64,000 bases of DNA from Minisyncoccota bacterium (GTDB lineage Bacteria > Patescibacteriota > Minisyncoccia > Phycocordibacterales > UBA9973): the NCBI GenBank assembly GCA_041650615.1, contig JBAZKU010000001.1, positions 23,385-87,384 on the forward strand, written 5' to 3'. Position numbers and translations under genes: made by a program. Position 1 is the first letter of the stretch; each line of letters begins with the position of its first letter. The notes under the pieces were generated by a model. It did not search any database. It was not told the origin of the DNA and saw only the letters and a program-made list of their open reading frames with translations. Shown piece after piece: positions 10,149-36,970 of this stretch.

Positions 10149-10187
10149 ACCCACACACTTATTTTTTTAAAAAATAAGTGTGTGGGT
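10149..10187 (-). terminator. perfect palindrome ACCCACACACTTATTTTTTT/AAAAAATAAGTGTGTGGGT, a terminator-like member of the CCCCCACACTTATTTT palindrome family
   Basis: 19-bp perfect inverted repeat immediately 3' of the solute-binding-protein gene. Confidence 0.5.
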
Positions 10188-11939
10188 TTATTTGGAAAAT
10201 ATTTTCCAAACATTATCTGTTTTAGTATACCATAAATATGAGTTTAGAAATCTATTTTCTGGTGCGACAATATAATTTATAGAAAAACCTTCCAAATTTT
10301 TTGGCACGACGTATATGAAATCAGGGCTATATAAAAAAACTACCGGCATGTCTTTTTTAATCTCACTTTCAAATTGAGCATACTTGGCAATTCTCGATTT
10401 TTCGTCAATCGTAATAAACGCACTTTCTAATATTTTATCCACTTTGGCATTAGTATACATTGCCACATTAAGACCTGGATCTTTTATTTGCGAGGAATGC
10501 CAAAAAGCAAATAGATCAGATTCATTATTTATAATCTCTCCAAAAAGCAAAGCATCATATTTGCGTGGACGAATAACACTTTGGTTTAAATTGCCAATCT
10601 CAAAAGTTTTAATATCAACTTTCATGCCAATTTCTTCCAGATCCTGTTTTATTAATTCTGCCGATTTTACAAGTTCAGGAGCATTTCCAGTCGAAATAGA
10701 AAATTCCAAATAGGTTATAGTCTTTTTCTTTTTTTTGTCGGTGATTGTTTTCTGTAAAAATCCGTCTGTTCCTTTCACCCAGCCATCTTTGCTCAAGATA
10801 TCTTGTGCTTTTTTAACTTTGTTTTCATGTGAAGTGTCATCTGCTTTTTCTAAATTTTGGTAATCAATCATGTTAGGAGGGATCGGGCTGTCAATCACAA
10901 TTCCATATCCGGAGAACACATTACGAATAATACTGCTTTTATTTATAGCAAGATCCATAGCTTTGATTATATTTTTATCAGTAAAAATTTGATTTTGACT
11001 TTGGTTAAAAAAGAGTCCGAACACTCGAGGAAGCGCCAAAGATTCTACTCGATAATTCCCCTCTTTTAATATTTGCGCATTTATAGGAGAGATAGAACTT
11101 ATTTTATCCACTTCTCCAATTCCTAGCGCTTTTATTAGATTTTCTTCACTTGAATAAAAGCGTAACGTCAATTTACTTAAATAGGGTTCGCCTAAAGCAA
11201 ATTCTGCAAAGGGTACTAAATCATAATAATCTATTGATCCGTCGGATTGTTTGCTTACTTTTTCGATCTTAAAAGGTCCTGATCCGATTGGTTGTGTGTT
11301 TACATTGTTTAACTCAATGGGTGTGGTATTCCACAAATATGCCGGCATTATGCCAAGTGTTGTGTTTTCTAAAAAAGACGCATAAGGCTGTTTTAATATA
11401 AACTTAACTGTTTTTTCATCTATTTTTTCCACACTTACGCTACTCCAATTTCCCCTTTTAGGACTTTTTATGACTGGATCCTTTATTTCATTTATAGTGA
11501 AGATTATATCATCAACAGTGATGGGGTTTTTATCATGAAAATATATATTGTCTTTTAAGGTAAAAGTATATATCAAACCATCTTTTGAAACATCGTATTT
11601 AAGAGCCAAGTCCGGGATAAGTGTGCCATCAGAATTTTTTCTCATTAGCCCGGAATAAATAAGCGATACTAAATCTTGGTCGGCATCAGAAAAGGCCAAT
11701 ACTGGATTTATAAAACGAGGAATACCGATAACTCCTTCCGTTATAGTCCCTCCTTTCATAGGCACGTTGACCATAAAAGATTTATTAATATCCTGAAGTA
11801 TTGTCAATGTGCTTATGCAAAGAATAGCTACAAAACATAAAAAAACAAAATACTCTCTTTTTGAGAAATTAGAGATAGCCTTCCTTATTTCGTTTTTTGA
11901 CGGCAATAAACTACGTATGCGACTGTAAAATTTTTCCAT
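10188..11939 (-). CDS. ABC transporter substrate-binding protein, family 5 (peptide/nickel type), membrane-anchored
   Basis: Size and the conserved YTFTLKDNIYFHD...ITVDD segment typical of SBP family 5; N-terminal TM anchor. Confidence 0.6.
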   Translation of the reverse strand: MEKFYSRIRSLLPSKNEIRKAISNFSKREYFVFLCFVAILCISTLTILQDINKSFMVNVPMKGGTITEGVIGIPRFINPVLAFSDADQDLVSLIYSGLMRKNSDGTLIPDLALKYDVSKDGLIYTFTLKDNIYFHDKNPITVDDIIFTINEIKDPVIKSPKRGNWSSVSVEKIDEKTVKFILKQPYASFLENTTLGIMPAYLWNTTPIELNNVNTQPIGSGPFKIEKVSKQSDGSIDYYDLVPFAEFALGEPYLSKLTLRFYSSEENLIKALGIGEVDKISSISPINAQILKEGNYRVESLALPRVFGLFFNQSQNQIFTDKNIIKAMDLAINKSSIIRNVFSGYGIVIDSPIPPNMIDYQNLEKADDTSHENKVKKAQDILSKDGWVKGTDGFLQKTITDKKKKKTITYLEFSISTGNAPELVKSAELIKQDLEEIGMKVDIKTFEIGNLNQSVIRPRKYDALLFGEIINNESDLFAFWHSSQIKDPGLNVAMYTNAKVDKILESAFITIDEKSRIAKYAQFESEIKKDMPVVFLYSPDFIYVVPKNLEGFSINYIVAPENRFLNSYLWYTKTDNVWKIFSK

Positions 11940-11972
11940 AAAACTAAAATTTAATGCAAAATGTAGATTTTA

Positions 11973-12215
11973 TTAGCTTCTTGCTTTTATAACAATAACA
12001 AGAATAGCAGATAAAGTAAAAAGAATTCCACAAGCAATGGATAAATAGAAAAGAAATCTTTCGAAACCTCGGCGGGTGTGGTGAAGAGTATCTCCATCGC
12101 TTCCCCCTAATGCGCCTCCTAGCCCTGCTCCTGATTGCTGGAGCAGTATCGCTGTTACTAAGACCACAGAAAGTATTATCTGCGCATAAGGCAGTATTGT
12201 AGCTACTAATTGCAT
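11973..12215 (-). CDS. secG: preprotein translocase subunit SecG
   Basis: About 80 aa, two TM helices and the Gly-rich LLQQSGAGLGGALGG segment characteristic of SecG. Confidence 0.6.
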   Translation of the reverse strand: MQLVATILPYAQIILSVVLVTAILLQQSGAGLGGALGGSDGDTLHHTRRGFERFLFYLSIACGILFTLSAILVIVIKARS

Positions 12216-12272
12216 ACAACTAGTATCTCATATTTTAACCCAAAATGCAATCCTTGAATTCTCAATTGCGTT

Positions 12273-13418
12273 GTGAATCATTTTTTCTATGATATTATAT
12301 TAAATATGTCACAACAAAAAATATCATCTTTAAGCAAAGAACTTCAAGCAAAAATATTTATGGGGGAAAGGGATTATAAATCTAACCCCAAAACACCTAT
12401 TACCAACTGGCTTGTTCACACTAAAAGACACTGCAACGGAGGCAAAACAGTAAATGCCGGACTTTGGCTGAAGAAACACACTGATAATGGAGGAAAAATA
12501 TTTTTAACTATGTCCGGGGCAGGCTCTTCTTTTCAACAGGGGATTATGATATCCGAGCTTATAAGAGCGGGGAAGATTGCCGCTATTTCTGTAACCGGAG
12601 CCAATTTGGAAGAAAGTCTTTATAGACTTGTTGCTAATAGCCATTATGCTTATATACCGGACTATGTTGAATTAACCAGAGCCGAAGAAAAAGAATTAGC
12701 TCGAGCCGGGCTTCGCAGAATCACGGATACATTCTTGCCGGAAGATGAATCAGTTAGAGTGGTTTTGCCGGAATTGGAAAAATTATGGCGTGAAGCGGAA
12801 GAAAAAAACAAACCTCTTTTGTGGCATGAATATTTCTTTCAACTTTTTGAAAGAAAAGCCATAGCTTTTGATCCGACAGCCAATCCGGAGGAGTGTTGGT
12901 TGTATCAAGCATGGTTGCATAAAGTTCCGGTTTTTGTTCCTGGGGTGGAAGATTCAACTATGGGAAATATTTTTACTCAAGCATCTTATAACGGCAATCA
13001 TCCAATATTGTCAAAATATAAATTAGAGAAACCCATAAGTCCGGAAATAATTCATCATTCATTTCGTTATATGCATGCTTTAGCCGAATGGTATATGGAT
13101 AACACTAAAGAAAAAGGATTAGCCTTTTTGCAATTGGGAGGAGGCATAGCCGCCGATTTTCCTATTTGTGTAGTTCCTCATATTAAAAAAGATTTTCTTT
13201 GGAAAGAAAGTGAAGAGATACAAGAAAAAGTAGTGCGTTCTTGGGCAGGATTTATTGAAATTCATTCTTCACCGATGAGTTTCGGTTCATACTCTGGAGC
13301 CGGTTTTAAAGAAAAAATAACTTGGGAAAAATTTGAAATTGATGCTTTTGGAGAGCAAATATTTGGTGATTACACAGAACATTTTCCAGACATCGCGGCT
13401 ATCATCTTGGGTAAATAA
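12273..13418 (+). CDS. deoxyhypusine synthase-like (DHS family) protein
   Basis: LTMSGAGSS, LGGGIAADFPI and overall about 380 aa resemble the DHS/homospermidine-synthase NAD-binding fold. Confidence 0.4.
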   Translation: MNHFFYDIILNMSQQKISSLSKELQAKIFMGERDYKSNPKTPITNWLVHTKRHCNGGKTVNAGLWLKKHTDNGGKIFLTMSGAGSSFQQGIMISELIRAGKIAAISVTGANLEESLYRLVANSHYAYIPDYVELTRAEEKELARAGLRRITDTFLPEDESVRVVLPELEKLWREAEEKNKPLLWHEYFFQLFERKAIAFDPTANPEECWLYQAWLHKVPVFVPGVEDSTMGNIFTQASYNGNHPILSKYKLEKPISPEIIHHSFRYMHALAEWYMDNTKEKGLAFLQLGGGIAADFPICVVPHIKKDFLWKESEEIQEKVVRSWAGFIEIHSSPMSFGSYSGAGFKEKITWEKFEIDAFGEQIFGDYTEHFPDIAAIILGK

Positions 13419-13451
13419 AACTGTTGCGTTAAAAAGAGTTTCTTGAATTAT

Positions 13452-13582
13452 ATGTATCCCGTTAGAGATTAATTAGTTTAATGGGAAAATTTAAATTAAA
13501 ATATTAAAAAAGTTTATTTAGTCAATAAATTATAAAAATAAGTACGAGAATCTAAAGATTCTCTATCTCTAACGGGATGTAT
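13452..13582 (+). repeat. start-codon-abutting bipartite inverted repeat, copy 3 (ATGTAT-CCCGTTAGAGAT ..95 nt.. ATCTCTAACGGG-ATGTAT)
   Basis: Distal arm ends at the ATG of the DUF167 gene; direct ATGTAT duplication. Confidence 0.8.
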
Positions 13583-13798
13583 ATAAGAGTCACAGTTACG
13601 ACAAAGGCAAAAAAAGAATCTTTTAAACAAAAATCAAAAGATTGTTTTGAAATCTCCGTCAAAGAAAAAGCCGAGCGGAATATGGCTAATACCCGTGTCT
13701 TAGAACTTGTGGCTATGTATTTAAAAGTTTCAAAAAATAAGGTCCGAATTGTAAATGGCCATCGGCATCCGAGCAAGCTCTTGGTGATAGATTTATAA
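13577..13798 (+). CDS. DUF167 (YggU/UPF0235) family small protein
   Basis: About 73 aa with V.V.AKP.AK...V..G.AN..L...LA..L.V....V.IV.G..S..K pattern; start codon abuts the ATCTCTAACGGG repeat arm. Confidence 0.5.
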   Translation: MYIRVTVTTKAKKESFKQKSKDCFEISVKEKAERNMANTRVLELVAMYLKVSKNKVRIVNGHRHPSKLLVIDL

Positions 13799-13807
13799 AA
13801 AGATTTT

Positions 13808-14476
13808 TTAGGCGAGATCGTTCCAGACAATAACTTTCCATTCATTTTTTTTAAACCAATGATGAGTGTAGGAGCAAATGGCCATACTGGCATTGTCTAT
13901 CGGATTAAAATAACTCAAATTATTATATTGCGAAGCAGTAAGGCTGTCTCCATAAAGCATGTAAGACACCACCATTTTTAGAAAAATTTTATGAGTGACC
14001 ATAATAATTCTTTTTTGCCTTCTTCTGCTAATATAAACTAATAATTTTTTTGCTCTTGCTTTTAGGTCGGAAAAATTTTCTTCATCAGAAACCCGTAAAT
14101 CGTCGGCATGATAACTATTATCAATGCGGTCAATGATTGCTCGAACTTCTCTTTCTTCTCCCGAATGGCCGATTATTTCAGAAGGATTTTTTCTTTCCAT
14201 CAAAAGATCGGAGTATTTAATTTTTAGATTAAGTTCCTTCGCAATTATTTCGGCCGTTTCTTTTGTGCGCTGATAAGGGCTTGAGATGATAATTTGAGGA
14301 CGCCCTTTATGTTTCGGGAATCTCATAGCTGTAGCTAAAGCCTGTGCTCTGCCTTTTTCAGTCAAAGACCCGTCTGGCCCTTGTCTTATGTTTTTAGCAT
14401 TAAGCACAGTTTCTCCGTGTCTTACGAAATATATTAACTTTGTTCCCATATGCATAATATTACCATAAATACTCAT
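13808..14476 (-). CDS. histidine phosphatase (phosphoglycerate-mutase-like) family protein
   Basis: LIYFVRHGET catalytic RHG motif near the N-terminus; the true start is probably an internal Met (MGTKL). Confidence 0.6.
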   Translation of the reverse strand: MSIYGNIMHMGTKLIYFVRHGETVLNAKNIRQGPDGSLTEKGRAQALATAMRFPKHKGRPQIIISSPYQRTKETAEIIAKELNLKIKYSDLLMERKNPSEIIGHSGEEREVRAIIDRIDNSYHADDLRVSDEENFSDLKARAKKLLVYISRRRQKRIIMVTHKIFLKMVVSYMLYGDSLTASQYNNLSYFNPIDNASMAICSYTHHWFKKNEWKVIVWNDLA

Positions 14477-14497
14477 AAATAAGGCTATTTTTTATGC

Positions 14498-14526
14498 TTG
14501 ACACTAAGTTTTGCTTAATATATACT
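14498..14526 (+). promoter_or_regulatory. putative rRNA promoter (TTGACA-N17-TATACT)
   Basis: Consensus-like -35 and -10 hexamers about 230 nt upstream of the 16S 5' end. Confidence 0.45.
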
Positions 14527-14758
14527 TCTCCCTGAGCGTCTAGTCCGTTTTGGATAGGACGTTTTTGTTTCAATCTTTGAAAAATGAATAGAAGTACAAG
14601 CCCCGCCACTGCGGGGCAGTGCAAGTTTGATATGTTTTTTTGAGTAATAATAATCAAAGAGCTAGGACACATGACAAAATGCAAAAACATTGCTGTTTTT
14701 TGTTTTGTTTCGTTCTAAACCCGTACACCTATTTATATAGGTGTAGGGTAAAACTTTT

Positions 14759-16295
<1,537 letters not shown>

Positions 16296-16550
16296 AATTC
16301 AATTTGAAAAATGTTCCAATTTTGATTTATCAAAATTGAGAATCCCGCCCTCGGCGGGATCTGACCTCGGAGAGGTTGAGCTTATTGAGTCGGTATTGTG
16401 TAGCTCAATTGACTACACAATAGTTTGTTTGAACTTAAAACAATCTGACAAGCGTGGAAAGACAGGCAAAACCTGCCTCGCATTGCTAGCAATAGCGACG
16501 CAAGGCGGGTAAAAAAGTTTAAAAGAACGAAACAAAACATAGAACAGCAA

Positions 16551-16580
16551 AAAAATACCTCGCGCAAGCGGGGTATTTTT
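16551..16580 (+). terminator. rho-independent terminator-like hairpin (AAAAATACC..GGGTATTTTT)
   Basis: Inverted repeat with flanking A and T runs between the 16S gene and ddl. Confidence 0.4.
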
Positions 16581-16594
16581 GTTATACTTTTTGC

Positions 16595-17650: not shown

Positions 17651-17652
17651 AA

Positions 17653-17723: not shown

Positions 17724-17892
17724 CATTTTGCTTTAATTCTCCCTTGTTGGTACAATTTACTTATAAAATTGTTTTTATCTGTAGCGGGTGATCGCACTCA
17801 CATAGGCACATATGTTGGAGTTTCGCCATCACCCGCTTCAAATGGAAACAATTTTTTTATTCTAAAACCATTTTTGATTTTCAAAAAGTTAT

Positions 17893-18027
17893 CCCCCACA
17901 CCTACTTTTGTATTATTCTGATTTTTCAATAAAATTACCAAAGTACTTTACATTTTCTCGTAAAAACTCTTTTTTAGGATTATTCTGTTAATAGAATTAA
18001 AAATTGATACAAAAGTAAGTGTGGGGG
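17893..18027. repeat. split member of the CCCCCACACTTATTTT palindrome family: arms 17893-17909 and 18011-18027 separated by a 101-nt AT-rich insert
   Basis: CCCCCACACCTACTTTT ... AAAAGTAAGTGTGGGGG; lies in the 600-bp noncoding region between tRNA-Pro and secA. Confidence 0.6.
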
Positions 18028-18191
18028 TTATCCACAGTTTTGCATAAAAACTTATTGTATTATCTTTTAATATGCGGGATAATTAAAGTGTTCCCGCAAT
18101 AATTATTTAAAAATATTTTTATTGTGTTTAAAAAAGATATTTTGAGGTCGTATTATTGCAAACTAAATTAAAAAATTAATTTAAAACTAAA

Positions 18192-18266
18192 ATGGCAAAG
18201 AAAAAGAAAAAGGCAGCAAAAAAGGGAAAGAAAAAGGCAGCAAAAAAGGGAAAGAAGCGAGCATAG
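18192..18266 (+). CDS. lysine-rich 24-aa small ORF (MAKKKKKAAKKGKKKAAKKGKKRA), speculative
   Basis: ATG..TAG ORF built from two tandem 27-nt repeats, followed by a hairpin and T-run terminator; no SD. Confidence 0.2.
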   Translation: MAKKKKKAAKKGKKKAAKKGKKRA

Positions 18267-18287
18267 TCTTTTCCTACTTCTAAAAGG

Positions 18288-18319: not shown

Positions 18320-18343
18320 AGTTTTTATGCTAATATACTAATT

Positions 18344-25371: not shown

Positions 25372-26652
25372 ATGGAATTAGATTTAACAAAAATTAAAAA
25401 GATATTTTTTATCGGAATCGGAGGCATTGGCATTTCGGCCTTAGCTAAAATGGCGCTTTCGCAGGGGATAGAAGTATCTGGGGTGAATGATGATGAAAGT
25501 CCCAAAACTCTTGACTCACTCCGCGCATCTGGTGCAGATATAAAAATGTCAAAGGTGGGCTTTGACATACCAGAGACTGATTTATATGTGTATAGTGATG
25601 CTTGGCTTTATAGAGGTCCGGAAATTATTGAAAATGCTAAAGAAACAGGCAAACCAGTTTTAAGTTATTTTGAAGCGCTTGGTATTTTCGCAAAAAAATA
25701 TAAAGTTATTGCAATTTCCGGCACTCATGGAAAAACTACTACCACTGCCATGATAGCGGAGATACTTACAGAAGCAGGACTAGACCCCACGGTTATTGTC
25801 GGCTCTTTTATTAAAAAATTTAACAGTAATTTCAGAAAAGGTAATGGTGAATATCTTGTAGTGGAAGCGGACGAATACAATAAACACTTTTTGAATTTTA
25901 ATCCATACATTACGGTTGTCACAAATATTGAGGTTGATCACTTAGACTGTTATAAAGATTTAGCTGATATACAAAATGCATTTGATAAACTTTTGTCGCA
26001 GAGTGAAAATAAAATTTTAGCCTCGCCAGTAGGCTCTGGGTCGATGGATTACACAAGATATTTGGCAAAAGTACCTAAGCTCTCTATTCTGGGAGAACAT
26101 AATAGGATGAACGCAGCGGCAGCATTGGCAGTAGCAGACCTTCTCCACATTAAAGAAGATGTTGCTCAAAAATCTCTAGCTCAATTTTCTGGTACTTGGC
26201 GCAGATTAGAAAAAAGAGGAGAGACAGAAAATAAAACTATTATATATGATGATTATGCCCATCATCCCACGGAAATAAAAGCAAGCCTGGAAGCTTTACG
26301 CGAGCTTTATCCAATTGGAGAGAAGAAAATTACAGTAATTTTTCAACCGCATCTATACAGTCGAACCAAGGCTTTATTCAACGATTTTGCCAAAAGTTTT
26401 AAAGGAGCCGATAACATATATCTGCTTCCTATCTTTTTTGCCAGAGAAACAAGAGATGAAAGCATTTCAAGTGAAAAACTAGCCCAGGCCATCTGCCTGG
26501 CTGGGGATAAAGCCAAAGCTTTTCCAGACTTTGAATCGGCAGAAAGCTTTATAAAAGGCTTAAATTTTGGAGAAAATGACGTATTTGTGACAATGGGAGC
26601 AGGGGAAGCATACAAAATAGCTGACAAAGTATTTAAATTACCCCTATTTTAG
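25372..26652 (+). CDS. murC: UDP-N-acetylmuramate--L-alanine ligase MurC
   Basis: IFFIGIGGIGISALA N-terminal motif and AISGTHGKTTTT central domain. Confidence 0.75.
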   Translation: MELDLTKIKKIFFIGIGGIGISALAKMALSQGIEVSGVNDDESPKTLDSLRASGADIKMSKVGFDIPETDLYVYSDAWLYRGPEIIENAKETGKPVLSYFEALGIFAKKYKVIAISGTHGKTTTTAMIAEILTEAGLDPTVIVGSFIKKFNSNFRKGNGEYLVVEADEYNKHFLNFNPYITVVTNIEVDHLDCYKDLADIQNAFDKLLSQSENKILASPVGSGSMDYTRYLAKVPKLSILGEHNRMNAAAALAVADLLHIKEDVAQKSLAQFSGTWRRLEKRGETENKTIIYDDYAHHPTEIKASLEALRELYPIGEKKITVIFQPHLYSRTKALFNDFAKSFKGADNIYLLPIFFARETRDESISSEKLAQAICLAGDKAKAFPDFESAESFIKGLNFGENDVFVTMGAGEAYKIADKVFKLPLF

Positions 26653-27494: not shown

Positions 27495-27496
27495 TT

Positions 27497-27649: not shown

Positions 27650-28765
27650 TTACTCAAGATATACCAATGTCATCTTGTGTTCTTTAGGTTCAAATAATGT
27701 AATTTGGAAATTGTAATTTTTACCAAGTTCTAGTTTTTCACGAAGTTTTGTTTCTCCGCCAAAAGTTGAATTATGCACGAGACCTGCTACGCCTTCCTTT
27801 ATAGAAACCAACGCGCCGTGTTTATTGTATTTAATTACGACACCTTTAATAATGTCACCTTTTTTCAATTTCCCTTCAAATTCTGTCCAAGGATTTTCCT
27901 TCAACGCTTTAATGGAAAGTGAAATTTTACCGTCTTTTATTTCAATTACTTTTGCGCGGACCTTATCATCTACTTTAAACATAGTGCGGGGATCTTCTAC
28001 GAGGCCCCAATCAAGTTCGGAAATATGCACAAGACCTTCCAATCCATCTTCAAGTTTTAAGAAAATTCCAAAATCCACAATTCCGGCAACCGTACAATCT
28101 ACTTCATCCCCCACATTATATTTGCTCAGAATTTCCTTTTTCTCTTCAGGATTATTATCTTTCTCGGAAAAGATTAATTTACCTTCCTTGGGAAGGGTGG
28201 AGATAATCATTACTGAAATTTTTTCGCCTACCAATTTCTTTAATTCTTTTAATATCTTGTCTTTATCCGAATCCAAAACGCGAGGATAATGGTCGGCTTT
28301 AAGTTGGGAAGCGGGCAAAAATCCTTGTATACCCTGCCATTCTAAGATTAATCCTCCCTTATTTGCATCTTTTATTTCCAGTTCTAGAACAGTTTTTGCT
28401 TTTATAGCTTTTTCGGCTTCGCTCCAAGTAAGCGCTTGTTTGGCTTCCTTGAGAGAAAGTTCCGTATATCCATTTTCATTTTCTACCTCAACGACTTTCG
28501 CCTTGATAATATCGCCGAGACTTATCTTTTTAATAATGTCTTTGGCATTGATAAATTCACGGCCGTAAATGATGCCTGTGCCAAAGGGCGATAAATCAAC
28601 AAAAACAGATGATTTTTCCACTAAAATTACCGGACCTTCAACCAGAGAATCAACCTCTGGCTTGCTTTTGCTTCGGTCAACGATAGATTTCAGCACTAAG
28701 TTCTCTTTAAAATTTTCTTCTACCTGCCCCGACTGGTCAAGGCGGGCTGTTTCTTCTTTCTTCAT
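27650..28765 (-). CDS. rpsA: 30S ribosomal protein S1 (4 S1 domains, short form)
   Basis: Four tandem S1 OB-fold repeats (GDIIKAKVVEVE.., GDEVDCTVAGIVDFGIFLKL.., GDIIKGVVIKYNKHGALVSI..). Confidence 0.75.
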   Translation of the reverse strand: MKKEETARLDQSGQVEENFKENLVLKSIVDRSKSKPEVDSLVEGPVILVEKSSVFVDLSPFGTGIIYGREFINAKDIIKKISLGDIIKAKVVEVENENGYTELSLKEAKQALTWSEAEKAIKAKTVLELEIKDANKGGLILEWQGIQGFLPASQLKADHYPRVLDSDKDKILKELKKLVGEKISVMIISTLPKEGKLIFSEKDNNPEEKKEILSKYNVGDEVDCTVAGIVDFGIFLKLEDGLEGLVHISELDWGLVEDPRTMFKVDDKVRAKVIEIKDGKISLSIKALKENPWTEFEGKLKKGDIIKGVVIKYNKHGALVSIKEGVAGLVHNSTFGGETKLREKLELGKNYNFQITLFEPKEHKMTLVYLE

Positions 28766-28906
28766 AATAATATCTTAAACAAAAAAATCCGCTAAGAAGC
28801 GGATATAAGGCTTAGGTTCTAATTTGACTTGTGTCTCCTTAGGGTTACCCTAAATCCTGCTTTTAATATATTAAAGTAATCTTACTATAATTATATAAAA
28901 AAGCAA

Positions 28907-28945
28907 GCCCCTACACTTATTTTTTTCAAAAATAAGTGTAGGGGC
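28907..28945. repeat. palindrome GCCCCTACACTTATTTTT-TTC-AAAAATAAGTGTAGGGGC, a member of the CCCCCACACTTATTTT family
   Basis: 18-bp perfect arms; lies between divergent gene starts (rpsA at 28765 and the 28959 gene), so it is not placed as a terminator. Confidence 0.7.
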
Positions 28946-28958
28946 AAGTATTTTCATT

Positions 28959-29639
28959 TTGTTTTTTGTTTCGTTTTTTGCTATACTATATATAATGATA
29001 ATCACTTATTTTGGTGAACAATTTTTTAAGATTGCCCAGGGGGATATGGTTCTTGCCTTCAATCCTGTCAGCAAAAGTGCCAAGTCTGACATAGGAGCGC
29101 ATTTCGGCGCGGACATAGCTTTTGTTACTACCAATTATCCTCTTTATAACGGAGTGGAACAACTTTCTCATGGCGAGCGTATGCCTTTTGTTATCAGTGG
29201 TCCTGGAGATTATGAAGTTAAGGAAGTTTTTATAAAAGGTATAATGTCCAATGCTTTGATTTCCGGTAAAAATTATATTAATACGATTTATTCATTTTCA
29301 TTGGATAATATTAATATCGCATTTTTAGGCGCATTGGGAGATCCTGAAATTTCAAAAGAAGCCCATGAAGCAATTGATAGTCCGGATATTCTTTTTATTC
29401 CGATTGGCGGAAAAAATTTATCTAAAGAAGTAAGCTTGCTTGATGCTAAAACGTCCGCCAAGCTTGCCTTGGAACTTGAACCGAAATTGATTATACCGAT
29501 GAGTTATGACGATAGTGCTTTAAAAATATTTTTGAAAGAAATTGGAGAAGACAGAGCTGAAGTGGTAGATAAATTAACCCTCAAGTTAAAAGATTTAGAT
29601 GGAAAGGAAGGGGAAGTGATTATATTAAAAGCTATTTAA
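28959..29639 (+). CDS. putative metal-dependent hydrolase (Lactamase_B_3-like fold)
   Basis: C-terminal DILFIPIGGKN...LIIPMSYDD resembles MBL-fold UPF proteins; weak. Confidence 0.3.
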   Translation: MFFVSFFAILYIMIITYFGEQFFKIAQGDMVLAFNPVSKSAKSDIGAHFGADIAFVTTNYPLYNGVEQLSHGERMPFVISGPGDYEVKEVFIKGIMSNALISGKNYINTIYSFSLDNINIAFLGALGDPEISKEAHEAIDSPDILFIPIGGKNLSKEVSLLDAKTSAKLALELEPKLIIPMSYDDSALKIFLKEIGEDRAEVVDKLTLKLKDLDGKEGEVIILKAI

Positions 29640-29655
29640 TTTTTTTTATAATTAT

Positions 29656-29898: not shown

Positions 29899-29974
29899 TA
29901 TATACTTGTCCTGTTATAAAATTAACTGGACAAAATTAAATCACAAAATCATTATTAAATAATTTTATAATAGG

Positions 29975-32431: not shown

Positions 32432-32448
32432 TAAAAATAAGAAATGCT

Positions 32449-32475
32449 ATATGTCAAAGAGTACCTTCGACATAT
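32449..32475. repeat. REP-like hairpin (variant ATATGTCAAAG-AGTACC-TTCGACATAT)
   Basis: Related to the two hairpins flanking the RAYT gene. Confidence 0.5.
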
Positions 32476-32503
32476 TGGTGTATCTTAATAGTAAAAATTA
32501 TTT

Positions 32504-33001
32504 ATGAAAAAAGCTCTAATAATAATTGATATCCAAAAAGGTTTTATAAATAAATTAACAAATAAAATTCCTTCTCGAATTAGGAGTTTTATTTTAAGGA
32601 ACAGAGGAAAATATAATTTGATTATTTTTACAAAATATATGAATCGTAAAAATAGCAATTTTGTTAAAAATTTAAATTGGAAAGGATTTATGGATGATAA
32701 ACAAACTGCCATAATTGATGAACTTAAAGAATTTATAAATAATAAAAATCTTTATAAAAAATATACCTATGGCAGTTTTGTTGATAATAAATTATTAAAG
32801 TATCTTAAAAGGAATAAAATTAAACAAGTTGATTTAGCCGGTATTGATACGGAAAATTGTGTACTTACTTTTGCCAGAGACGCTTTTGATAGGGGATTTA
32901 GGGTGGTAGTTTTTAAAAATCTTTCTGCAAGTCATTCCAATATTAAACTACATAAAGCAGCCTTAAAAATAATAGAAGAAAATATAGGTAATGTAATATA
33001 A
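32504..33001 (+). CDS. isochorismatase-family cysteine hydrolase
   Basis: ALIIIDIQKGF and VDLAGIDTENCVLTFARDA (catalytic Cys) pattern of isochorismatase/nicotinamidase family. Confidence 0.65.
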   Translation: MKKALIIIDIQKGFINKLTNKIPSRIRSFILRNRGKYNLIIFTKYMNRKNSNFVKNLNWKGFMDDKQTAIIDELKEFINNKNLYKKYTYGSFVDNKLLKYLKRNKIKQVDLAGIDTENCVLTFARDAFDRGFRVVVFKNLSASHSNIKLHKAALKIIEENIGNVI

Positions 33002-33026
33002 GATGTCAAAGTGTCTCTTTGACATC
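33002..33026. repeat. REP hairpin GATGTCAAAG-TGTCT-CTTTGACATC at the 3' end of the RAYT gene
   Basis: 9-10 bp perfect stem; near-identical copy at 33642-33664. Confidence 0.7.
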
Positions 33027-33632
33027 AAAATTTAGTGTTTCTTTTATAAAGCTATTTTGATTACCAAAAACTGAAATTAGTAGTTCTTTGTTAATTATTG
33101 GCAAGTTTCTATTAGAAGAAAAATCTTGATAGCTACTCCATTTGTAATCTTCGGGAGTTTTTACCAATCTATCTTTTACAGGATTCATATGAATATAAGC
33201 CGATGTCCACATGAGTTGAGGATTATTTTCCATAAGTACTGCCTTAAAACAATCTTGAAAAGTATGTCCGGCACTATCATATTTATTATTTATGTATTTA
33301 GAATAACTGGCACATACCTTTGAAATTAATTTTGAAATTGGAATATCTCCAACTTGTTCAATCAGTAAGTGAAAGTGATTTGGCATTAAACAGAATGTAT
33401 GCAATTTAAAATTATTTTTATTTATGTTAGTAATTCTAATTCTTGAATAGGGTATAGCAATTAATTTTTCTTTATTTAATTCTTCTTCGGTAAATCCCAA
33501 ACAAAGTCCAAGTCTAAAAAGAAAAGCCCTATAATCTTGTTCGTCAAAAAATATTTTTTTCTTGTTATTACCTCTGTTATAAATATGGGCAATTGATCCG
33601 CTATTGAATTTTTTATAGTCTCTATTATTCAT
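33006..33632 (-). CDS. REP-associated tyrosine transposase (RAYT; IS200/IS605 Y1-transposase-like)
   Basis: HuH motif CLMPNHFHLLIE and C-terminal NPVKDRLVKTPEDYKWSSY typical of RAYT; flanked by REP hairpins. Confidence 0.7.
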   Translation of the reverse strand: MNNRDYKKFNSGSIAHIYNRGNNKKKIFFDEQDYRAFLFRLGLCLGFTEEELNKEKLIAIPYSRIRITNINKNNFKLHTFCLMPNHFHLLIEQVGDIPISKLISKVCASYSKYINNKYDSAGHTFQDCFKAVLMENNPQLMWTSAYIHMNPVKDRLVKTPEDYKWSSYQDFSSNRNLPIINKELLISVFGNQNSFIKETLNFDVKETL

Positions 33633-33641
33633 TATTATATT

Positions 33642-33664
33642 ATGTCAAAGTGTCTCTTTGACAG
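33642..33664. repeat. REP hairpin ATGTCAAAG-TGTCT-CTTTGACAG just upstream of the RAYT start
   Basis: Near-identical to the 33002-33026 copy. Confidence 0.7.
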
Positions 33665-33722
33665 CAAGTACTTTTGTTGATAACTATCACACAAATATTA
33701 TTTTTTAAGCTATAATATAACC

Positions 33723-34259
33723 ATGTTCACCGACCCGGTAAAAAACTTAAAAGCCTTTGATTTAAGGGAAAATATGATTGTGGCGGATTTGGGCGCTGGT
33801 TCCGGCTTTTATACTATTCCTGCGGCAGGAATAGTTTCCAGGGGAAAAGTTTATGCCATTGAAATACAAAAAGATTTTTTAACAACAATCAAAAATAAGG
33901 CGGCAGAGGCTCATCTTAATAATCTGGAATGCTTCGTAGGGGATATTGAAAAAATAGGCGGGACAAAATTAAAAGACAATATAGTAGATGCCGTAATTGC
34001 TTCCAATATACTTTTTCAAGTGGAAGACAAAGATAAATTTATAGAAGAAGCAAAAAGAATATTGAAACCCAATGGCAAACTCCTTCTTATTGATTGGTCT
34101 GATAATTCGTCCGGTATCGGAGCCAGTTTTGATAAAATTATTCCTAAAAATAAGGCGCGGGAAATGTTTGAAAAGGAAGGTTTCATATGGCAGCGGGATA
34201 TTTCCGCTGGAGACCATCATTATGGTATGATTCTAGTAAAGGGAAATGAATCCCGTTAG
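33723..34259 (+). CDS. class I SAM-dependent methyltransferase
   Basis: Motif I VADLGAGSGFYT and motif post-I/II spacing; about 178 aa. Confidence 0.7.
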   Translation: MFTDPVKNLKAFDLRENMIVADLGAGSGFYTIPAAGIVSRGKVYAIEIQKDFLTTIKNKAAEAHLNNLECFVGDIEKIGGTKLKDNIVDAVIASNILFQVEDKDKFIEEAKRILKPNGKLLLIDWSDNSSGIGASFDKIIPKNKAREMFEKEGFIWQRDISAGDHHYGMILVKGNESR

Positions 34260-34379
34260 AGATTGCATGGTTAATAAATCAGATAATATATAAAAAATGA
34301 CTTTATGTCGAAAATTTTAATAAAAAGTAATATAACTACGGGAATGCAAAGCATTTCCTATCTCTAACGAGATGAAAGG
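34247..34379 (+). repeat. start-codon-abutting bipartite inverted repeat, copy 5 (ATGAAT-CCCGTTAGAGATT ..94 nt.. ATCTCTAACGAG-ATGAAA)
   Basis: The proximal arm overlaps the TAG stop of the methyltransferase gene; the distal arm ends at the ATG of the SBP gene. Confidence 0.75.
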
Positions 34380-35667
34380 AAATTTCCAAATTATAATTTT
34401 AATCGTATTCATTGTTGCTGCTATTTTAGGTGTTTTGGTTTTTTCGGGCGCAATACCTCTTGGAAGTGATGGAGGCGATACCGGAATACAGGGCACGGTT
34501 GTTTTGTGGGGCACAATAAAAGCGGGAATTATTAACACTTTGCTTGATGACTTTAATCGTGGCAATCCCACTTTTATCGTAAAATATGTGGAAAAATCTC
34601 CGGATACTTTTGATAACGATTTATTGGAAGCACTCGCTGCTGGAGTTGGTCCGGATATGTTTTTTATAACTGATGATTTGGTATTTAAATACAGTAATAA
34701 AATTTATACTATTCCATATGCAAGTTTCCCGGTTAATACTTTTAAAAATACTTTTGTCGGCGCGGGAGAAGTTTTTTTGACTTCAAAAGGAGTTTTAGCT
34801 TTCCCGATTACTGTTGACCCTATGATGATGTATTACAACAGAACCATTCTTGATGCGAATGGTGTTGCTTACCCTCCGGCATATTGGGATGAATTTGCCA
34901 ATTTTGTTTCGCTTTTGACTAAAAAGGACAGTAGAGGCGTGATTTTAAAAAGCACAGTGGCCATGGGGCAGTTTTCAAATGTTTTACACGCCAAAGATAT
35001 ATTATCCGCTCTTTTTATGCAGGCAGGAAATTCAATTGTAGCCGAGAAAAATGGGGTTTTTATATCTACCTTAAGCCAGAGCGATGGAAAATATGACTTG
35101 GGTTCTATCTTGGAATTTTATACGAATTTTGCCGACCCATTAAACAGTCTTTATTCTTGGAATAAATCTTTTTCCGATTCGCAAAATGCTTTCAGTGCGG
35201 AAGATTTGGCATTTTATTTTGGTTATGCGAGCGAATTGGAATCCTTGGTTAATAAAAATCCAAATCAAAATTTCTTGGTTACGTCTATGCCTCAGATTAG
35301 AAATAGCAATTTAAAATTAACTTCTGCCCGTACCACAGGCGTTGCCATCTCTTCCTTCTCTAAAAACTTTAATACTGCCTTTACGGCAGCAGGTCTTTTG
35401 TCCAGCGGGGATTTTGCTTCAGAGCTTGCTGCTTCTTTAGGAATTGCTCCGGCTCGCCGAGACTTGCTTAACGCTAAGCCAACGGATGCATATTTGCCAA
35501 CCTTTTATGCTTCGGCATTTTTTGCAAAAAGCTGGCTTGATCCATCGCCCCAGAATACCGATAATATTTTCCAAGGGATGGTTGAAAAAGTGCTTTCCGG
35601 CAGTATGTCCGTGACCCAAGCTGTGAGTGATGCCAGCGCCAAGCTTGGATTATTATTGGTTAAATAA
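34372..35667 (+). CDS. extracellular solute-binding protein (ABC SBP family 1-like), membrane-anchored
   Basis: N-terminal TM anchor, about 430 aa with SBP-like composition; start codon abuts the ATCTCTAACGAG repeat arm. Confidence 0.35.
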   Translation: MKGNFQIIILIVFIVAAILGVLVFSGAIPLGSDGGDTGIQGTVVLWGTIKAGIINTLLDDFNRGNPTFIVKYVEKSPDTFDNDLLEALAAGVGPDMFFITDDLVFKYSNKIYTIPYASFPVNTFKNTFVGAGEVFLTSKGVLAFPITVDPMMMYYNRTILDANGVAYPPAYWDEFANFVSLLTKKDSRGVILKSTVAMGQFSNVLHAKDILSALFMQAGNSIVAEKNGVFISTLSQSDGKYDLGSILEFYTNFADPLNSLYSWNKSFSDSQNAFSAEDLAFYFGYASELESLVNKNPNQNFLVTSMPQIRNSNLKLTSARTTGVAISSFSKNFNTAFTAAGLLSSGDFASELAASLGIAPARRDLLNAKPTDAYLPTFYASAFFAKSWLDPSPQNTDNIFQGMVEKVLSGSMSVTQAVSDASAKLGLLLVK

Positions 35668-35671
35668 ATTT

Positions 35672-36103
35672 ATGAAAAAAACTAATTTAAAATTATTTCT
35701 GATTGCTGCCTTTGTTTTAGTTGGATTTTTTTCATTATATTTTTTTAGTACAGAAGTCTTGGCGCAAGATACTAATTTGGTTCCTTGCGGAACAATACGT
35801 GATGCGAACAATAACATAACGAACCCCTGCGGTTTTAATGACATAATGACTTTAATAAATACGGTAGTAAAATTTATTTTTATTAATTTGGCTTTACCTA
35901 TCGCTGCTATAATGTTCGCCTATGCGGGATTTGAGCTTGTAACTTCGGGAGGGGAGACTTCCAAAAGAGAAAGAGCCAAGAGAATATTTATCAATGTAGC
36001 TATTGGTCTGATTGTAGTGGCGGCCGCTTTCCTTATAGTTCAGACAGTATTAAAAATAGCAGGATATGATACAGGTAATGGGTGGAATTGGTTTGGATTT
36101 TAA
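35672..36103 (+). CDS. VirB2/TrbC-like small pilin-like protein, paralog 1
   Basis: Signal peptide then hydrophobic helix, short charged loop (SGGETSKRERAKR), hydrophobic helix; start chosen at the internal Met (MKKTNLKL). Confidence 0.4.
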   Translation: MKKTNLKLFLIAAFVLVGFFSLYFFSTEVLAQDTNLVPCGTIRDANNNITNPCGFNDIMTLINTVVKFIFINLALPIAAIMFAYAGFELVTSGGETSKRERAKRIFINVAIGLIVVAAAFLIVQTVLKIAGYDTGNGWNWFGF

Positions 36104-36129
36104 GGTTATAAAGAATATAACCCTGTAGT

Positions 36130-36165
36130 AGAATTTTGGAAAAATTTCACTACGGGGTATAATAT
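36130..36165. repeat. inverted repeat ATAACCCTGTAGT..19 nt..ACTACGGGGTATAAT upstream of pilin-like paralog 2 (contains a TATAAT -10 box)
   Basis: 13-14-bp arms related to the CCCGTTAGA motif by a G/T swap; a second copy overlaps the stop of paralog 2 (36553-36590). Confidence 0.5.
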
Positions 36166-36169
36166 AAAC

Positions 36170-36568
36170 ATGAATTACATTAAGAAAAACTTGCCCAAAA
36201 TTATTTTAGTAACTTTTATATTAGCTTTACCGATTTTATCTTTAGCCCAAAATGGTACAAATCCTCCTCCCGCAGGTAATGGTACAAATCCCCCTGCTAC
36301 AGGTAACGTAAAAATTGTTAACCCTATACATTCAGAAACATTAACCGGGTTAATTAAGACTATTCTGGAAGGAGTAATCAAAATCGGTATGCCCATTATT
36401 GTTTTAGCTATTATTTATTCTGGTTTTCTTTTTGTCAGGGCGCAAGGCAATTCGGAAAAATTAAATGAAGCTAAGCGTACCCTGCTTTACACTTTAATCG
36501 GCGCAGCGATACTCCTGGGGTCGTGGGGTATTGCCTTGCTTATAACAAATACAGTCAAAGCCCTGTAG
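36170..36568 (+). CDS. VirB2/TrbC-like small pilin-like protein, paralog 2
   Basis: Signal peptide, NGTNPP repeat, two hydrophobic helices separated by AQGNSEKLNEAKR loop. Confidence 0.4.
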   Translation: MNYIKKNLPKIILVTFILALPILSLAQNGTNPPPAGNGTNPPATGNVKIVNPIHSETLTGLIKTILEGVIKIGMPIIVLAIIYSGFLFVRAQGNSEKLNEAKRTLLYTLIGAAILLGSWGIALLITNTVKAL

Positions 36569-36633
36569 TAGAGCATAGCTCACTACCGGGTATACATTAT
36601 TAAATAATATTTGTTGATTTTAAATAAAATTTT

Positions 36634-36924
36634 ATGTTATGCACTTTAGCAGCCAATCCTAAACTTCAAGACCTTTTAAGTTATATAAGCTGTATTATTA
36701 ATGGATCGGTGATCCCTGTTATTTTCGGCTTAGCTATAGTTATGTTTATTTGGGGAGTGGTTCAATACGTTATAAATAGCGATGAGGAAGCAAAAAAAGA
36801 GAAAGGCAAGCAATTTATGATTTGGGGCATTATCGGTTTGGCGGTAATGGTAGGTATTTGGGGACTAGTCAAGATAGTAGGGTCTACCTTTGGTATTGAG
36901 TATGTTATTCCACAATTAAATTAG
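36634..36924 (+). CDS. VirB2/TrbC-like small pilin-like protein, paralog 3
   Basis: Shared core VIPVIFGLAIVMFIWGVVQYVINSDEEAKKEKGKQFMIWGIIGLAVMVGIWGLV. Confidence 0.4.
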   Translation: MLCTLAANPKLQDLLSYISCIINGSVIPVIFGLAIVMFIWGVVQYVINSDEEAKKEKGKQFMIWGIIGLAVMVGIWGLVKIVGSTFGIEYVIPQLN

Positions 36925-36931
36925 TTGGCTT

Positions 36932-36970
36932 GCCCCCACACTTATTTTCCCTTAAAATAAGTGTGGGGGC
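36932..36970. repeat. palindrome GCCCCCACACTTATTTT-CCCTT-AAAATAAGTGTGGGGGC, a member of the CCCCCACACTTATTTT family
   Basis: 17-bp perfect arms between pilin-like paralogs 3 and 4; may act as a terminator here. Confidence 0.7.

Follow-up and report, generated by a model that had tools for sequence, protein, structure and literature searches.

Introduction

The Ssn nucleases, GIY-YIG enzymes of roughly 94 aa, bind single-stranded DNA at hairpin repeats, which flank the nuclease gene and are also dispersed through the genome (PMC11893778). The arrangement NTS-ssnA-NTS has been likened to an insertion sequence by its authors (Chenal et al., Nat Commun 2025, PMC11893778). Ssn, with its Ssn-related motif (SRM), is the closest known system to the palindromic family that we describe here, starting from a 64-kb stretch of DNA (the window).

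GIY-YIG enzymes hydrolyse DNA without covalent intermediates. In homing, the endonuclease gene is copied into one cognate allele, with neither inverted arms nor duplications. Correia elements (CREE) of Neisseria are about 100-155 bp long and duplicate TA. To our knowledge, HUH/Y1 transposition (IS200/IS605) generates no target-site duplications.

Results

The original prediction placed four copies of a palindrome in the window, and we found all four at those positions: c1 at 10149-10187 with perfect 19-nt arms, c2 as two arms separated by 101 nt (17893-17909 and 18011-18027), c3 at 28907-28945 and c4 at 36932-36970. A repeat finder extended the c2 arms to 24 nt (92% complementary). Allowing 2 mismatches at most, we found 14 matches to the arm pattern CCCNACACNTANTTTT in the window, compared to 2.94 +/- 1.63 in shuffled sequences (14 or more in 0 of 100 shuffles); the matches beyond the four copies are within coding sequence and look like chance. 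Folded as single-stranded DNA, the window hairpins showed energies of -18.4 to -19.9 kcal/mol (z = -7.9 to -9.9).

A 4-bp direct repeat, missed in the original prediction, is present on both sides of each of the four copies: TTTA at 10146-10149 and 10187-10190 (c1), TTAT at 17889-17892 and 18028-18031 (c2), CAAG at 28904-28907 and 28945-28948 (c3), and CTTG at 36929-36932 and 36970-36973 (c4). Including the repeats, the sites span 10146..10190 (element CCCACACACTTATTTTTTTAAAAAATAAGTGTGTGGG, 10150-10186), 17889..18031 (the long form), 28904..28948 (element CCCCTACAC...GTGTAGGGG, 28908-28944) and 36929..36973 (element CCCCCACACTTATTTTCCCTTAAAATAAGTGTGGGGG, 36933-36969). The short form of the element is 37 bp, or 45 bp counting the repeats.

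The gene context first described for c1-c4 matches the annotation. c1 is located between the stop of an SBP_bac_5 gene and the start of an RNase J gene, both on the minus strand, and the stop codon of the SBP gene (10188-10190) sits inside the right repeat of c1. c2 is located between tRNA-Pro and SecA, and its right TTAT opens a conserved TTATCCACA (DnaA-box sequence). The divergent genes on either side of c3 are rpsA (27650-28765, minus strand) and a metallo-beta-lactamase gene (28959-29639, plus strand), and c4 is flanked by T4SS_pilin genes, one on each side. The window copies are all intergenic (4/4), and most copies examined outside the window also appear to be so, based on naive ORF calls.

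These hairpins have stable, GC-clamped stems, c1 and c4 are preceded by genes, and a terminator scan flagged c1 and c3; these features would fit the suggestion that some copies are co-opted as terminators. However, the terminator signal of c1 is confined to the strand opposite the genes beside it, and c4 was flagged on neither strand. c3 separates divergent genes, none of about 36 copies lies between convergent genes (naive ORF calls), and no U-tract was found on the relevant strand of the hairpins. A terminator role is poorly supported, and any influence on transcription of the neighbouring genes would be secondary. It is very improbable that the copies are ordinary intrinsic terminators or regulatory hairpins with an incidental likeness in sequence, because the 17-nt arm sequence is kept across class-level lineages of Patescibacteria and the copies show insertion polymorphism with duplications. 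Context, conservation and insertion polymorphism rule out plain terminators as the primary explanation.

Orthologous sites were compared for presence of the element. c1 recurs with identical flanks in L047, in which RNase J shows 78% protein identity. The long form of c2 is also found in L060 (4308-4440, with 99 nt between the arms) but is missing from L133 and L151, where the alignment picks up exactly at TTATCCACAG. The window itself contains an unfilled target site at 18158..18175, GCAAAC-TAAA-TTAAAAAA; in the alignment, this site is empty in L151 and filled in L060 (4167-4201) and L133 (1803-1856), where the copy, upstream of SecA, reads AAAC TAAA-element-TAAA. The c3 site is filled in L005/L089, L036/L048/L151, L044, L095 and L107 and empty in L190, L191 (reading AAGCAAGTATTTTT) and L192, and c3-bearing and c3-free genomes are interspersed in the GyrA tree. 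Among the c3 orthologues that were aligned (six to seven), the 12-nt core ACACTTATTTTT shows no variation. The GC clamp, made up of the outermost five bases of an arm, differs between c3 copies, with matching changes in the two arms (CCCGC, CCCCC and CCAGC). c4 is present in the same-species contigs L187-L189, while the alignment showed a clean empty site, GGCTTGCAT(TAC), in L190 and L191. The presence/absence patterns disagree with the SecA and GyrA trees. At otherwise collinear sites, the unit gained or lost is the element plus one 4-bp repeat. The empty sites, showing gain and loss as a unit, bear out the view of a dispersed palindromic element as opposed to plain terminators.

The family occurs in Saccharibacteria, Paceibacteria, Nomurabacteria, Giovannonibacteria and others, with about one match to the strict search pattern per representative genome. 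The GC clamp lies outside that pattern and therefore confirms the family independently. Identical 4-mers adjoin 30 of 47 elements with unique flanks, and 8/47 match at three of four positions, whereas control 4-mers displaced by 4 nt matched in 0/47. When orthologues were collapsed into 40 independent loci, perfect 4-bp duplications were found at 30 of them (TATA, 14; TTTA/TAAA, 8; CAAG/CTTG, 5; TTAT/ATAA, 2; TTAA, 1). Pair counts gave 99.1% pairing for the 17-bp stem, whereas 21-22 of 34 elements show no pairing at the inner two positions of the flanks; the flanks are therefore duplications and not an extension of the stem. These results established that the 4 bp duplicated on insertion come from a target of partial symmetry, YWWR, typical targets being G-TATA-C, C-TTTA-C and G-CTTG-C. 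Loop length grades from about 250 through about 100 and 20-50 to 0-5 nt. We found no identical loops at two loci of one CPR genome, so the loops give no sign that the short form as such proliferates.

In its full-length form of approximately 290-300 bp, the element consists of a nuclease ORF between two inverted arms of 17-22 nt that open with CCC(C/G)CACAC, with the start and stop codons within or beside the arms. The ORF encodes a single-domain GIY-YIG protein of 84-86 aa; at L111:6338-6623, an 85-aa ORF between arms matches PF01541 at E = 6e-15. Its 279 homologues are mostly 84-90 aa long, and every taxon-named one among them is from Patescibacteria. CCC(C/G)CACAC arms bracket the ORF in 7/7 independent loci examined, all homologues of a single ORF family in a search begun from one locus; three of the 7 show TAAA-type repeats. 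The gene is found at differing loci between genomes (between pilin genes, in the infB/rbfA gap and after aspS). One orthologous site is occupied in L181 by the ORF-bearing form and in L193 by a hairpin without the ORF, in both cases between the same TAAA flanks; a single site can carry either form. A 4-bp duplication is missing from some ORF-bearing copies (L185 has none, and the flanks of L171 and L186 have only AT in common), which counts against the mobile-element reading.

The loop had been said to be able to carry cargo. This holds for the relatives, with the GIY-YIG nuclease ORF as the specific cargo, but no remnant of that ORF was detected in the interior of c2. The 101-nt insert of c2, previously regarded as unrelated sequence, is conserved in L060. 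That the c2 interior is not recognisably ORF-derived, and that the 64-kb window contains no GIY-YIG gene or remnant, count against a cassette origin.

An AlphaFold2 model of the nuclease (pLDDT 90.9) is closest to UPF0213 (YhbQ), At-HIGLE and Slx1 (query-normalised TM-scores of 0.57-0.72), with marginal sequence similarity to these proteins (E about 3e-4). Proteins of this clade act on branched or cruciform-like DNA, consistent with recognition of hairpins, but they are host repair enzymes without associated repeats. Weak NCBIfam matches to the N-terminus of a group I intron endonuclease family recall homing endonuclease genes of the I-TevI/Seg type, likewise selfish genes encoding a GIY-YIG nuclease. 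Unlike these, the nuclease here has no DNA-binding domain (85 aa versus about 245 aa), and the element is found at many unrelated sites.

By its inverted arms, 4-bp duplication and clean empty sites, the element bears the usual signature of a MITE, and its YWWR-type target may recall those of the IS5 group. The arms might be terminal inverted repeats of a DDE insertion sequence with a 4-bp-duplicating transposase (IS5-, IS701- or IS1380-like), the GIY-YIG ORF being a passenger or an unrelated nested gene. We consider this improbable. The GIY-YIG gene is the sole ORF found between arms at the 7 loci, and L001-L160, a sample biased to short forms, contained no transposase enclosed by arms 0.7-3 kb apart. 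The arms are perfectly complementary in at least 7 clamp variants, beyond the needs of DDE recognition, and a 37-bp duplex would be too stiff for its ends to be joined in a paired-end transposase complex. MITEs and Correia elements share with our element terminal inverted repeats, target duplication, intergenic siting and possible effects on transcription of neighbours. The proposed likeness to CREE is apt for a small inverted-repeat element with a duplication and ends there: the element is far shorter, no parent DDE insertion sequence was found for it, and its only coding form carries the GIY-YIG gene.

A RAYT-like Y1 gene is present in the window at 33006-33632 (NCBIfam REP_Tyr_transpos, 62 bits, under the cut-off of 80; PF01797, E = 8e-11), and the hairpins, intergenic and of REP-like size, might be REPs spread by its product. 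However, this gene is bracketed by a hairpin of another family, ATGTCAAAG-N5-CTTTGACAT, at 33003-33025 and 33642-33664; the same pairing recurs in L107 and L190, and in L083 the hairpins around a distant Y1 gene are different again. L190 has kept the Y1 gene and its own hairpins, yet its c3 and c4 sites are empty. Furthermore, the arms of our family bracket GIY-YIG and not Y1 genes, and target-site duplications are foreign to HUH/Y1 transposition. The supposed link between RAYT and the palindromes fails on these grounds; a REP/RAYT system is largely refuted and seems to us extremely unlikely. Identity with REPs was rejected on the 4-bp duplications, which REPs do not make. What the two systems have in common is short GC-clamped extragenic palindromes, compensatory variation preserving the stem, and a nuclease gene that has its own repeats on both sides; they differ in enzyme class (Y1 HUH versus GIY-YIG), and the RAYT-like gene of the window belongs with the other hairpin family.

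Discussion

The palindromes of the window probably derive from a compact mobile element, widespread across Patescibacteria, whose full-length form is the GIY-YIG cassette; they would be its non-autonomous copies, lacking the ORF. Because the same arms bracket the ORF, and because of the L181/L193 site, the window copies are regarded as ORF-less derivatives of the ~0.3-kb cassette. The element is neither a plain terminator nor a REP/RAYT element.

The resemblance to Ssn lies in a small single-domain GIY-YIG protein (84-86 aa versus about 94 aa), hairpin-forming sequences that bound the gene, and ORF-less hairpins dispersed mostly between genes. Unlike in Ssn, the ORF is nested in one hairpin, so that each flank is a single arm and not a whole hairpin, and the element is symmetric, without an oriented CGTC-type tag. 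A search of the window for the SRM gave 0 matches, and target-site duplications and empty sites, as found here, are unreported for SRM. The copy number is low, and the hosts are Patescibacteria, a clade unmentioned in PMC11893778.

The match in protein type and in the layout of a gene with dispersed hairpins, the intergenic siting of the copies, and the conservation of c1 and c3 at orthologous sites with an invariant core would also fit a host system domesticated along the lines of Ssn/NTS. The hairpins would then serve as marks recognised by a chromosomal GIY-YIG single-strand nuclease, whose task might, for example, be to process or restrict single-stranded DNA that enters the cell or is being replicated, and host-level selection would keep the hairpins; the hosts of the element are naturally DNA-scavenging bacteria. 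We regard such a system as unlikely: the strict pattern is matched about once per representative genome, compared to hundreds of NTS in Neisseria, copies are often gained and lost, with target duplications, the site of the nuclease gene varies between genomes as for a mobile gene, and the SRM is absent.

For the mobile element that we favour, we infer the following mode of movement. By analogy to the Ssn nucleases and the Slx1/HIGLE/UPF0213 clade, the nuclease may recognise the folded arms, as a single-strand hairpin or a cruciform, and may cut at the hairpin base. Because GIY-YIG enzymes are hydrolytic, joining at the 4-bp staggered break would need host ligase or repair. The window copies may have lost the ORF in place, or they may have been mobilised in trans. 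Complementarity of the arms could be kept in ways that may be combined: only symmetric variants may be recognised and spread, template switching in replication may correct imperfect palindromes, or differing variants may insert repeatedly at the same hot-spot target.

Since a hydrolytic nuclease alone is incapable of strand transfer, the nuclease could instead be carried along as a passenger or have a role in the host. The invariant core of c3 and the retention of c1 in L047 could mean that these copies are kept by host-level selection and do not persist selfishly.

Four intergenic palindromes flanked by 4-bp direct repeats

All four palindromes were present at the coordinates originally predicted, and the genes beside them matched their first description. 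Including the repeats described below, they occupy 10146-10190 (c1), 17889-18031 (c2), 28904-28948 (c3) and 36929-36973 (c4). The window is AT-rich (about 35% GC), and the arm motif had 14 matches in it against 2.9 +/- 1.6 expected from dinucleotide-preserving shuffles; matches other than c1-c4 lay within coding sequence and look like chance. The window holds four intergenic copies. Folded as single-stranded DNA, the short copies had energies of -18 to -20 kcal/mol (z about -8 to -10). A known RNA family was ruled out: in an Rfam scan of the window at gathering thresholds, the palindromes had no match, the only hits being a cobalamin riboswitch, six tRNAs and 16S rRNA.

Overlooked at first reading, a direct 4-bp repeat stands on both sides of every copy: TTTA/TTTA at c1, TTAT/TTAT at c2, CAAG/CAAG at c3 and CTTG/CTTG at c4. 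The element has a size of 37 bp, arms of 17-19 nt and a variable 4-bp duplication of the form YWWR. Correia elements (CREE) are 100-155 bp long, with 26-bp inverted repeats and a TA duplication; the palindromes differ from them in size (37 bp), arm length (17 nt) and their variable 4-bp YWWR duplications.

Several conserved features lie near c2 and c3. A perfect DnaA-box sequence, TTATCCACA (18028-18036), adjoins c2, its TTAT being the duplicated 4-mer; it is unchanged in all four relatives, with the element present or absent. Right after tRNA-Pro, a stretch of about 90 nt (17765-17855) containing the inverted repeat GCGGGTGATCGC...GCCATCACCCGC is nearly identical in the related loci L060 and L151 despite diverged intergenic surroundings; it had no Rfam match at the gathering threshold and may be a small structured RNA. 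Upstream of secA, a 24-codon lysine-rich mini-ORF (18192-18266; MAKKKKKAAKKGKKKAAKKGKKRA), which has promoter-like and terminator-like signals of its own, is conserved in L060, L133 and L151, with a varying number of K/A/G repeats. A Fur-box-like sequence, AATGATAATCAC (28996-29010), overlaps the promoter region of the metallo-beta-lactamase-fold gene at 28959 and is conserved in L005, L036, L190 and L191.

Arm pairing and target-site duplications in Patescibacteria

Two collections, the first with a single genome for each species and the second of metagenome contigs, were scanned in turn with the pattern ACACYTAYTTTT-N(0-12 or 0-30)-AAAARTARGTGT, which holds the inner arm core only. These scans, able to detect short forms only (loops <=30 nt), yielded 42 and 118 loci. 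About fifty matches carried a CCC(C/G/A)(C/T/A) clamp (the five outermost arm bases) on both sides, although the clamp was absent from the search pattern; those from named genomes belonged to Patescibacteria of several classes (Saccharibacteria, Paceibacteria, Nomurabacteria). Across 34 elements, the 17-bp stem was 99.1% paired, with arms essentially always complementary and five stem positions varying on both sides in step. An operator of a dimeric dsDNA-binding regulator (NrdR-box-like ACAC...GTGT, parS or CIRCE-type) was dropped as a reading because the half-site spacing varies from 0 to 30 nt, up to 101, and the arms co-vary perfectly.

Identical adjacent 4-mers were found in 30 of 47 elements with unique flanks; when displaced 4-mers were compared instead, they were identical in 0 of 47. 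With orthologues collapsed, 4-bp duplications were perfect in 30 of 40 independent loci, by type TATA (14), TTTA/TAAA (8), CAAG/CTTG (5), TTAT/ATAA (2) and TTAA (1). Among the loci examined, no TTTA...TAAA flank pair was seen. The flanking 4-mers are direct repeats rather than an extension of the stem. Their outer bases are mutually complementary (YWWR), often with G...C at the positions just outside; to judge from these flanks, the target is probably partly symmetric, G-TATA-C, C-TTTA-C or G-CTTG-C. A 5-bp duplication would suit c2, c3, c4 and some TATA-type copies but fails for c1 and the TTTA-type copies, and 4 bp was therefore taken as the consistent length.

The same 12-nt inner stem, ACACCTATTTTT, also occurs with other outer clamps, in GGGGTC... 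and (A/G)GGGACAG... hairpin families of other phyla. These core-sharing families fall into two groups of loci, one with L050, L055, L057, L076, L085, L112, L114, L122, L129, L135 and L141, the other with L006, L019, L028, L032, L064, L090, L096, L102, L109 and L153. The (A/G)GGGACAG... family has four copies in one Omnitrophota MAG, and a single genome has the same element at two loci, L006 and L019. A common origin of these families with the palindromes was considered; neither 4-bp duplications nor, in the short flanks available, a GIY-YIG gene was found in them.

Filled and empty sites

At the c4 site, the window reads GGCTTG, the element and CTTGCATTAC, whereas L190 and L191 read GGCTTGCAT(TAC) and are empty. 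At the c3 site, the window and L107 read GCAAG, the element and CAAGTATTTT; L191 is empty (GCAAGTATTTTT), as are L190 and L192. In the empty c3 and c4 sites, the 4-mer is present once. The situation is reversed upstream of SecA, where L060 and L133 are filled (AAAC-TAAA, the element, TAAA) but no copy stands in L151 or the window (18158-18175). The long form at c2 is common to the window and L060 and is missing in L133 and L151, in which the TTAT of TTATCCACAG is exactly where the alignment picks up again. For c1, L086 was examined as an empty site; the region was not collinear and was unusable. The presence patterns disagree with the SecA and GyrA trees (the window, with c3, is closest to L190, which lacks it), and gain or loss has therefore happened repeatedly.

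Orthologues of c3 showed four symmetric clamp variants, CCCCT, CCAGC, CCCGC and CCCCC. These could result from compensatory change in place, from template switching during replication, which is established as a way of correcting imperfect palindromes, or from independent insertion of different variants into one hot-spot target.

Insertion polymorphism also bears on the possibility, raised originally as the refuting alternative, that the palindromes are plain intrinsic terminators, which would be expected to have a GC-rich stem with a U-tract behind it on the transcribed strand, at the 3' end of a gene. A terminator scan flagged c1 on the plus strand only, whereas both its genes are on the minus strand; c4 was unflagged, and c3 lies between divergent gene starts. 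Convergent contexts were absent among the copies, a result to be taken with caution as it comes from naive ORF calls; because such calls gave several spurious cases of copies 'inside ORFs' in higher-GC contigs, the absence of convergent contexts was the only part of the gene-orientation census used. As the primary explanation, termination was rejected.

The original prediction had also proposed a REP- or CREE-like element, possibly linked to a RAYT-like transposase such as that of the Y1 gene at 33006-33632 (-), whose product scored 62 bits against NCBIfam REP_Tyr_transpos, below the cut-off. The Y1 gene is bracketed by hairpins of another kind, ATGTCAAAG-N5-CTTTGACAT, in the window, L107 and L190, and in L190 the gene and its hairpins are present while the c3 and c4 sites are empty. 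Moreover, the single-strand HUH mechanism of REP/RAYT systems makes no target-site duplication, whereas the palindromes have perfect duplications at three quarters of independent loci. The link between the palindromes and the Y1 gene was thus rejected.

Other repeats in the window

The ATGTCAAAG-N5-CTTTGACAT hairpins form a third family, with copies at 25546-25568, 32451-32473, 33003-33025 and 33642-33664, the last two bracketing the Y1 gene. L107 and L190 have the same layout with compensatory changes in the stem; in L083, a distant Y1 gene is bracketed by a different pair, GTCAACC..GGTTGAC, and L191 and L192 have neither the Y1 gene nor its hairpins at that place. Together, the Y1 gene and these hairpins have the look of a true Patescibacteria system of the REP/RAYT type.

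Another inverted-repeat family, the second, is represented six times, at 265-345, 8065-8143, 13456-13578, 34250-34373, 37452-37521 and 57028-57107. Its arms, (AT)CCCGTTAGA(A/G)AT and AT(T/C)TCTAACGGG(AT), are separated by 40-95 nt. The three copies that were read completely have direct ATGNAT repeats on both sides, and in these the downstream ORF has its ATG directly next to the right arm, e.g. at 34372, 37520 and 57106. At the site orthologous to 57028-57107, L039 has a CCCCCACAC-family hairpin in place of the second-family copy. Two long perfect palindromes were also seen, CACAAGTCAGACATGTGGGA/TCCCACATGTCTGACTTGTG with 20-nt arms (52517-52558) and CTAAAAAGTCAACC..GGTTGACTTTTTAG (39423-39455), the core of the latter resembling the hairpins that flank the L083 Y1 gene. 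Elsewhere, the window has a complete, solitary 16S rRNA gene (14756-16304) with a Ddl-like gene after it and no 23S gene, and the cobalamin riboswitch (5289-5463, minus strand) is just over threshold (34.8 bits vs 31.5).

A GIY-YIG nuclease gene between the arms

ORF-bearing forms were sought by looking for longer arm pairs. At L111:6338-6623, the 252 nt between the arms correspond to exactly one 85-aa ORF, whose ATG and TAA stop lie inside the arms and whose product is a GIY-YIG domain (PF01541, E = 6e-15). This ORF has 279 homologues, mostly of 84-90 aa, and all those with a taxon name are from Patescibacteria. Inverted CCC(C/G)CACAC arms bracketed the ORF in all seven independent members with DNA read. 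The arm-bounded ORFs encode 84-86 aa, with PF01541 spanning residues 1-71; the sole other Pfam match was a weak, overlapping one to T5orf172. Residues Y3, Y5, G18, R26, H30 and E62, of catalytic type, are invariant or nearly so. The AlphaFold2 model has a GIY-YIG fold (pLDDT 90.9) and is closest to UPF0213, At-HIGLE and Slx1, nucleases whose substrate is branched DNA, with I-TevI only after these. Sequence and fold searches of the PDB likewise matched UPF0213, HIGLE and Slx1.

Flanks of the ORF-bearing copies were TAAA/TAAA at L163 and L181 and TTAA/TAAA at L111; L171 and L186 had only AT in common, and L185 had no shared flank repeat. L181 shares its arms (CCCGCACACTTACTTTTTTAT) with short hairpins. 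In the relative L193, with an adjacent protein 84% identical, the L181 site is occupied by a partly decayed hairpin that lacks the ORF and stands between the same TAAA repeats. A third relative has a different inverted repeat there, CCCGGTAGTAGATTTTGGTGA ... TCACCCAAATTCACTACGGGG (L194:3240-3330), which may be a strongly diverged family member, or else the site may be a hot spot. In L111, and likewise in L181, copies with and without the ORF occur within 1.3 kb. Arm spacings form a series of 0-30, 33, 99-101 and 252-268 nt, which makes the window palindromes ORF-less representatives of a nuclease-cassette family. The 64-kb window itself, the interior of c2 included, showed neither a GIY-YIG gene nor a remnant of one: with a 110-homologue profile HMM run against the six-frame translation of the window, the possibility that the 101-nt interior of c2 is a decayed nuclease ORF was rejected for lack of signal.

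Two DnaA-box-like sequences, TGTGGATAA, occur near the L181 element (about L181:2090-2130). Small GIY-YIG ORFs of a different subfamily stand beside tRNA genes at L118:1480-1900 (also in L001) and L186:2100-2560, the one in L118 having a duplicated tRNA 5' half on one side and the intact tRNA gene on the other, which suggests that related nuclease genes have a separate insertion mode.

Discussion

Taken from its published description, the Ssn family is the nearest described system. Ssn proteins are GIY-YIG enzymes of about 94 aa that bind hairpin repeats (NTS/SRM) in ssDNA only and cut beside them; the repeats flank the ssn gene and are scattered through the genome, a layout that Chenal et al. 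(2025) remark resembles an insertion sequence (PMC11893778). They reported no duplications or empty sites, did not mention Patescibacteria, and left open whether small GIY-YIG nucleases with their hairpins are mobile elements or host tools (PMC11893778). The palindrome family is likewise a nuclease-plus-hairpin unit of the Ssn-like kind, with a single-domain GIY-YIG protein (84-86 aa, against about 90-100 aa) and dispersed, mostly intergenic ORF-less hairpins. It differs in that, in the loci read, each flank of the ORF is one arm of a large hairpin, not a complete hairpin. The SRM motif (HGTCWY N0-2 YYVSBRH N0-5 WNVSBRG N0-2 RNCYNB) had 0 matches on both strands of the window, the PDB sequence and fold searches with the ORF protein returned no Ssn entry, and tblastn of the nuclease consensus against plasmids, seeking an Ssn-family sequence, gave no match. 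Distinctive of the palindrome family are the ORF nested in a single hairpin, the target-site duplications, the turnover documented by filled and empty sites and Patescibacteria as the host clade. Our literature searches turned up neither a prokaryotic GIY-YIG gene described as having both inverted arms and target duplications nor an account of palindromic repeats in Patescibacteria.

On the reading we favour, the nuclease would recognise the arms when folded into a hairpin or cruciform, the folding setting both element ends side by side, and cut there; host functions would then finish the joining at a 4-bp staggered break. GIY-YIG enzymes hydrolyse DNA, and strand transfer is beyond them alone. 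It is further possible, albeit rather unlikely, that the ~0.3-kb unit of two inverted arms and an 85-aa GIY-YIG gene is an autonomous DNA transposon, with the 37-bp palindromes as its miniature derivatives. Its sole protein would then be a nuclease specific for the hairpin or cruciform structure of the folded element. Alternatively, the palindromes might be classical MITEs of a DDE insertion sequence. Terminal inverted repeats (17-19 nt) with a fixed 4-bp duplication agree with such an origin, which stays a candidate because the collection scans could find only short forms. On the other hand, the loci examined held no transposase-coding parent with the same ends, their only coding form being the GIY-YIG one, and a duplex of only 37 bp should be too short to form the paired-end complex. 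The hairpins may also have been domesticated for a host role like that of Ssn, with which the invariant core at retained sites is compatible.

To the observations of Chenal et al. (2025), the palindrome family adds target-site duplications, clean empty sites and one site with ORF-bearing and ORF-less forms, and an 85-residue protein with a 37-nt substrate now allows a direct test of the choice between mobile element and host tool. As insertion polymorphisms, these hairpins are unsuitable for annotation as terminators or use as conserved regulatory motifs. Patescibacteria have streamlined genomes of ~1 Mb that are usually called repeat-poor, yet a single 64-kb window holds at least three hairpin-repeat families. 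If the ~0.3-kb unit is an autonomous transposon, no smaller autonomous mobile element would be known; it would also be the first DNA transposon class driven by a GIY-YIG enzyme, and would give direct comparative evidence for the mobility of Ssn-like gene-plus-hairpin units. If the nuclease drives the movement, DNA transposons would gain a new mechanistic class, and the lower size limit of autonomous elements would be set by this one.
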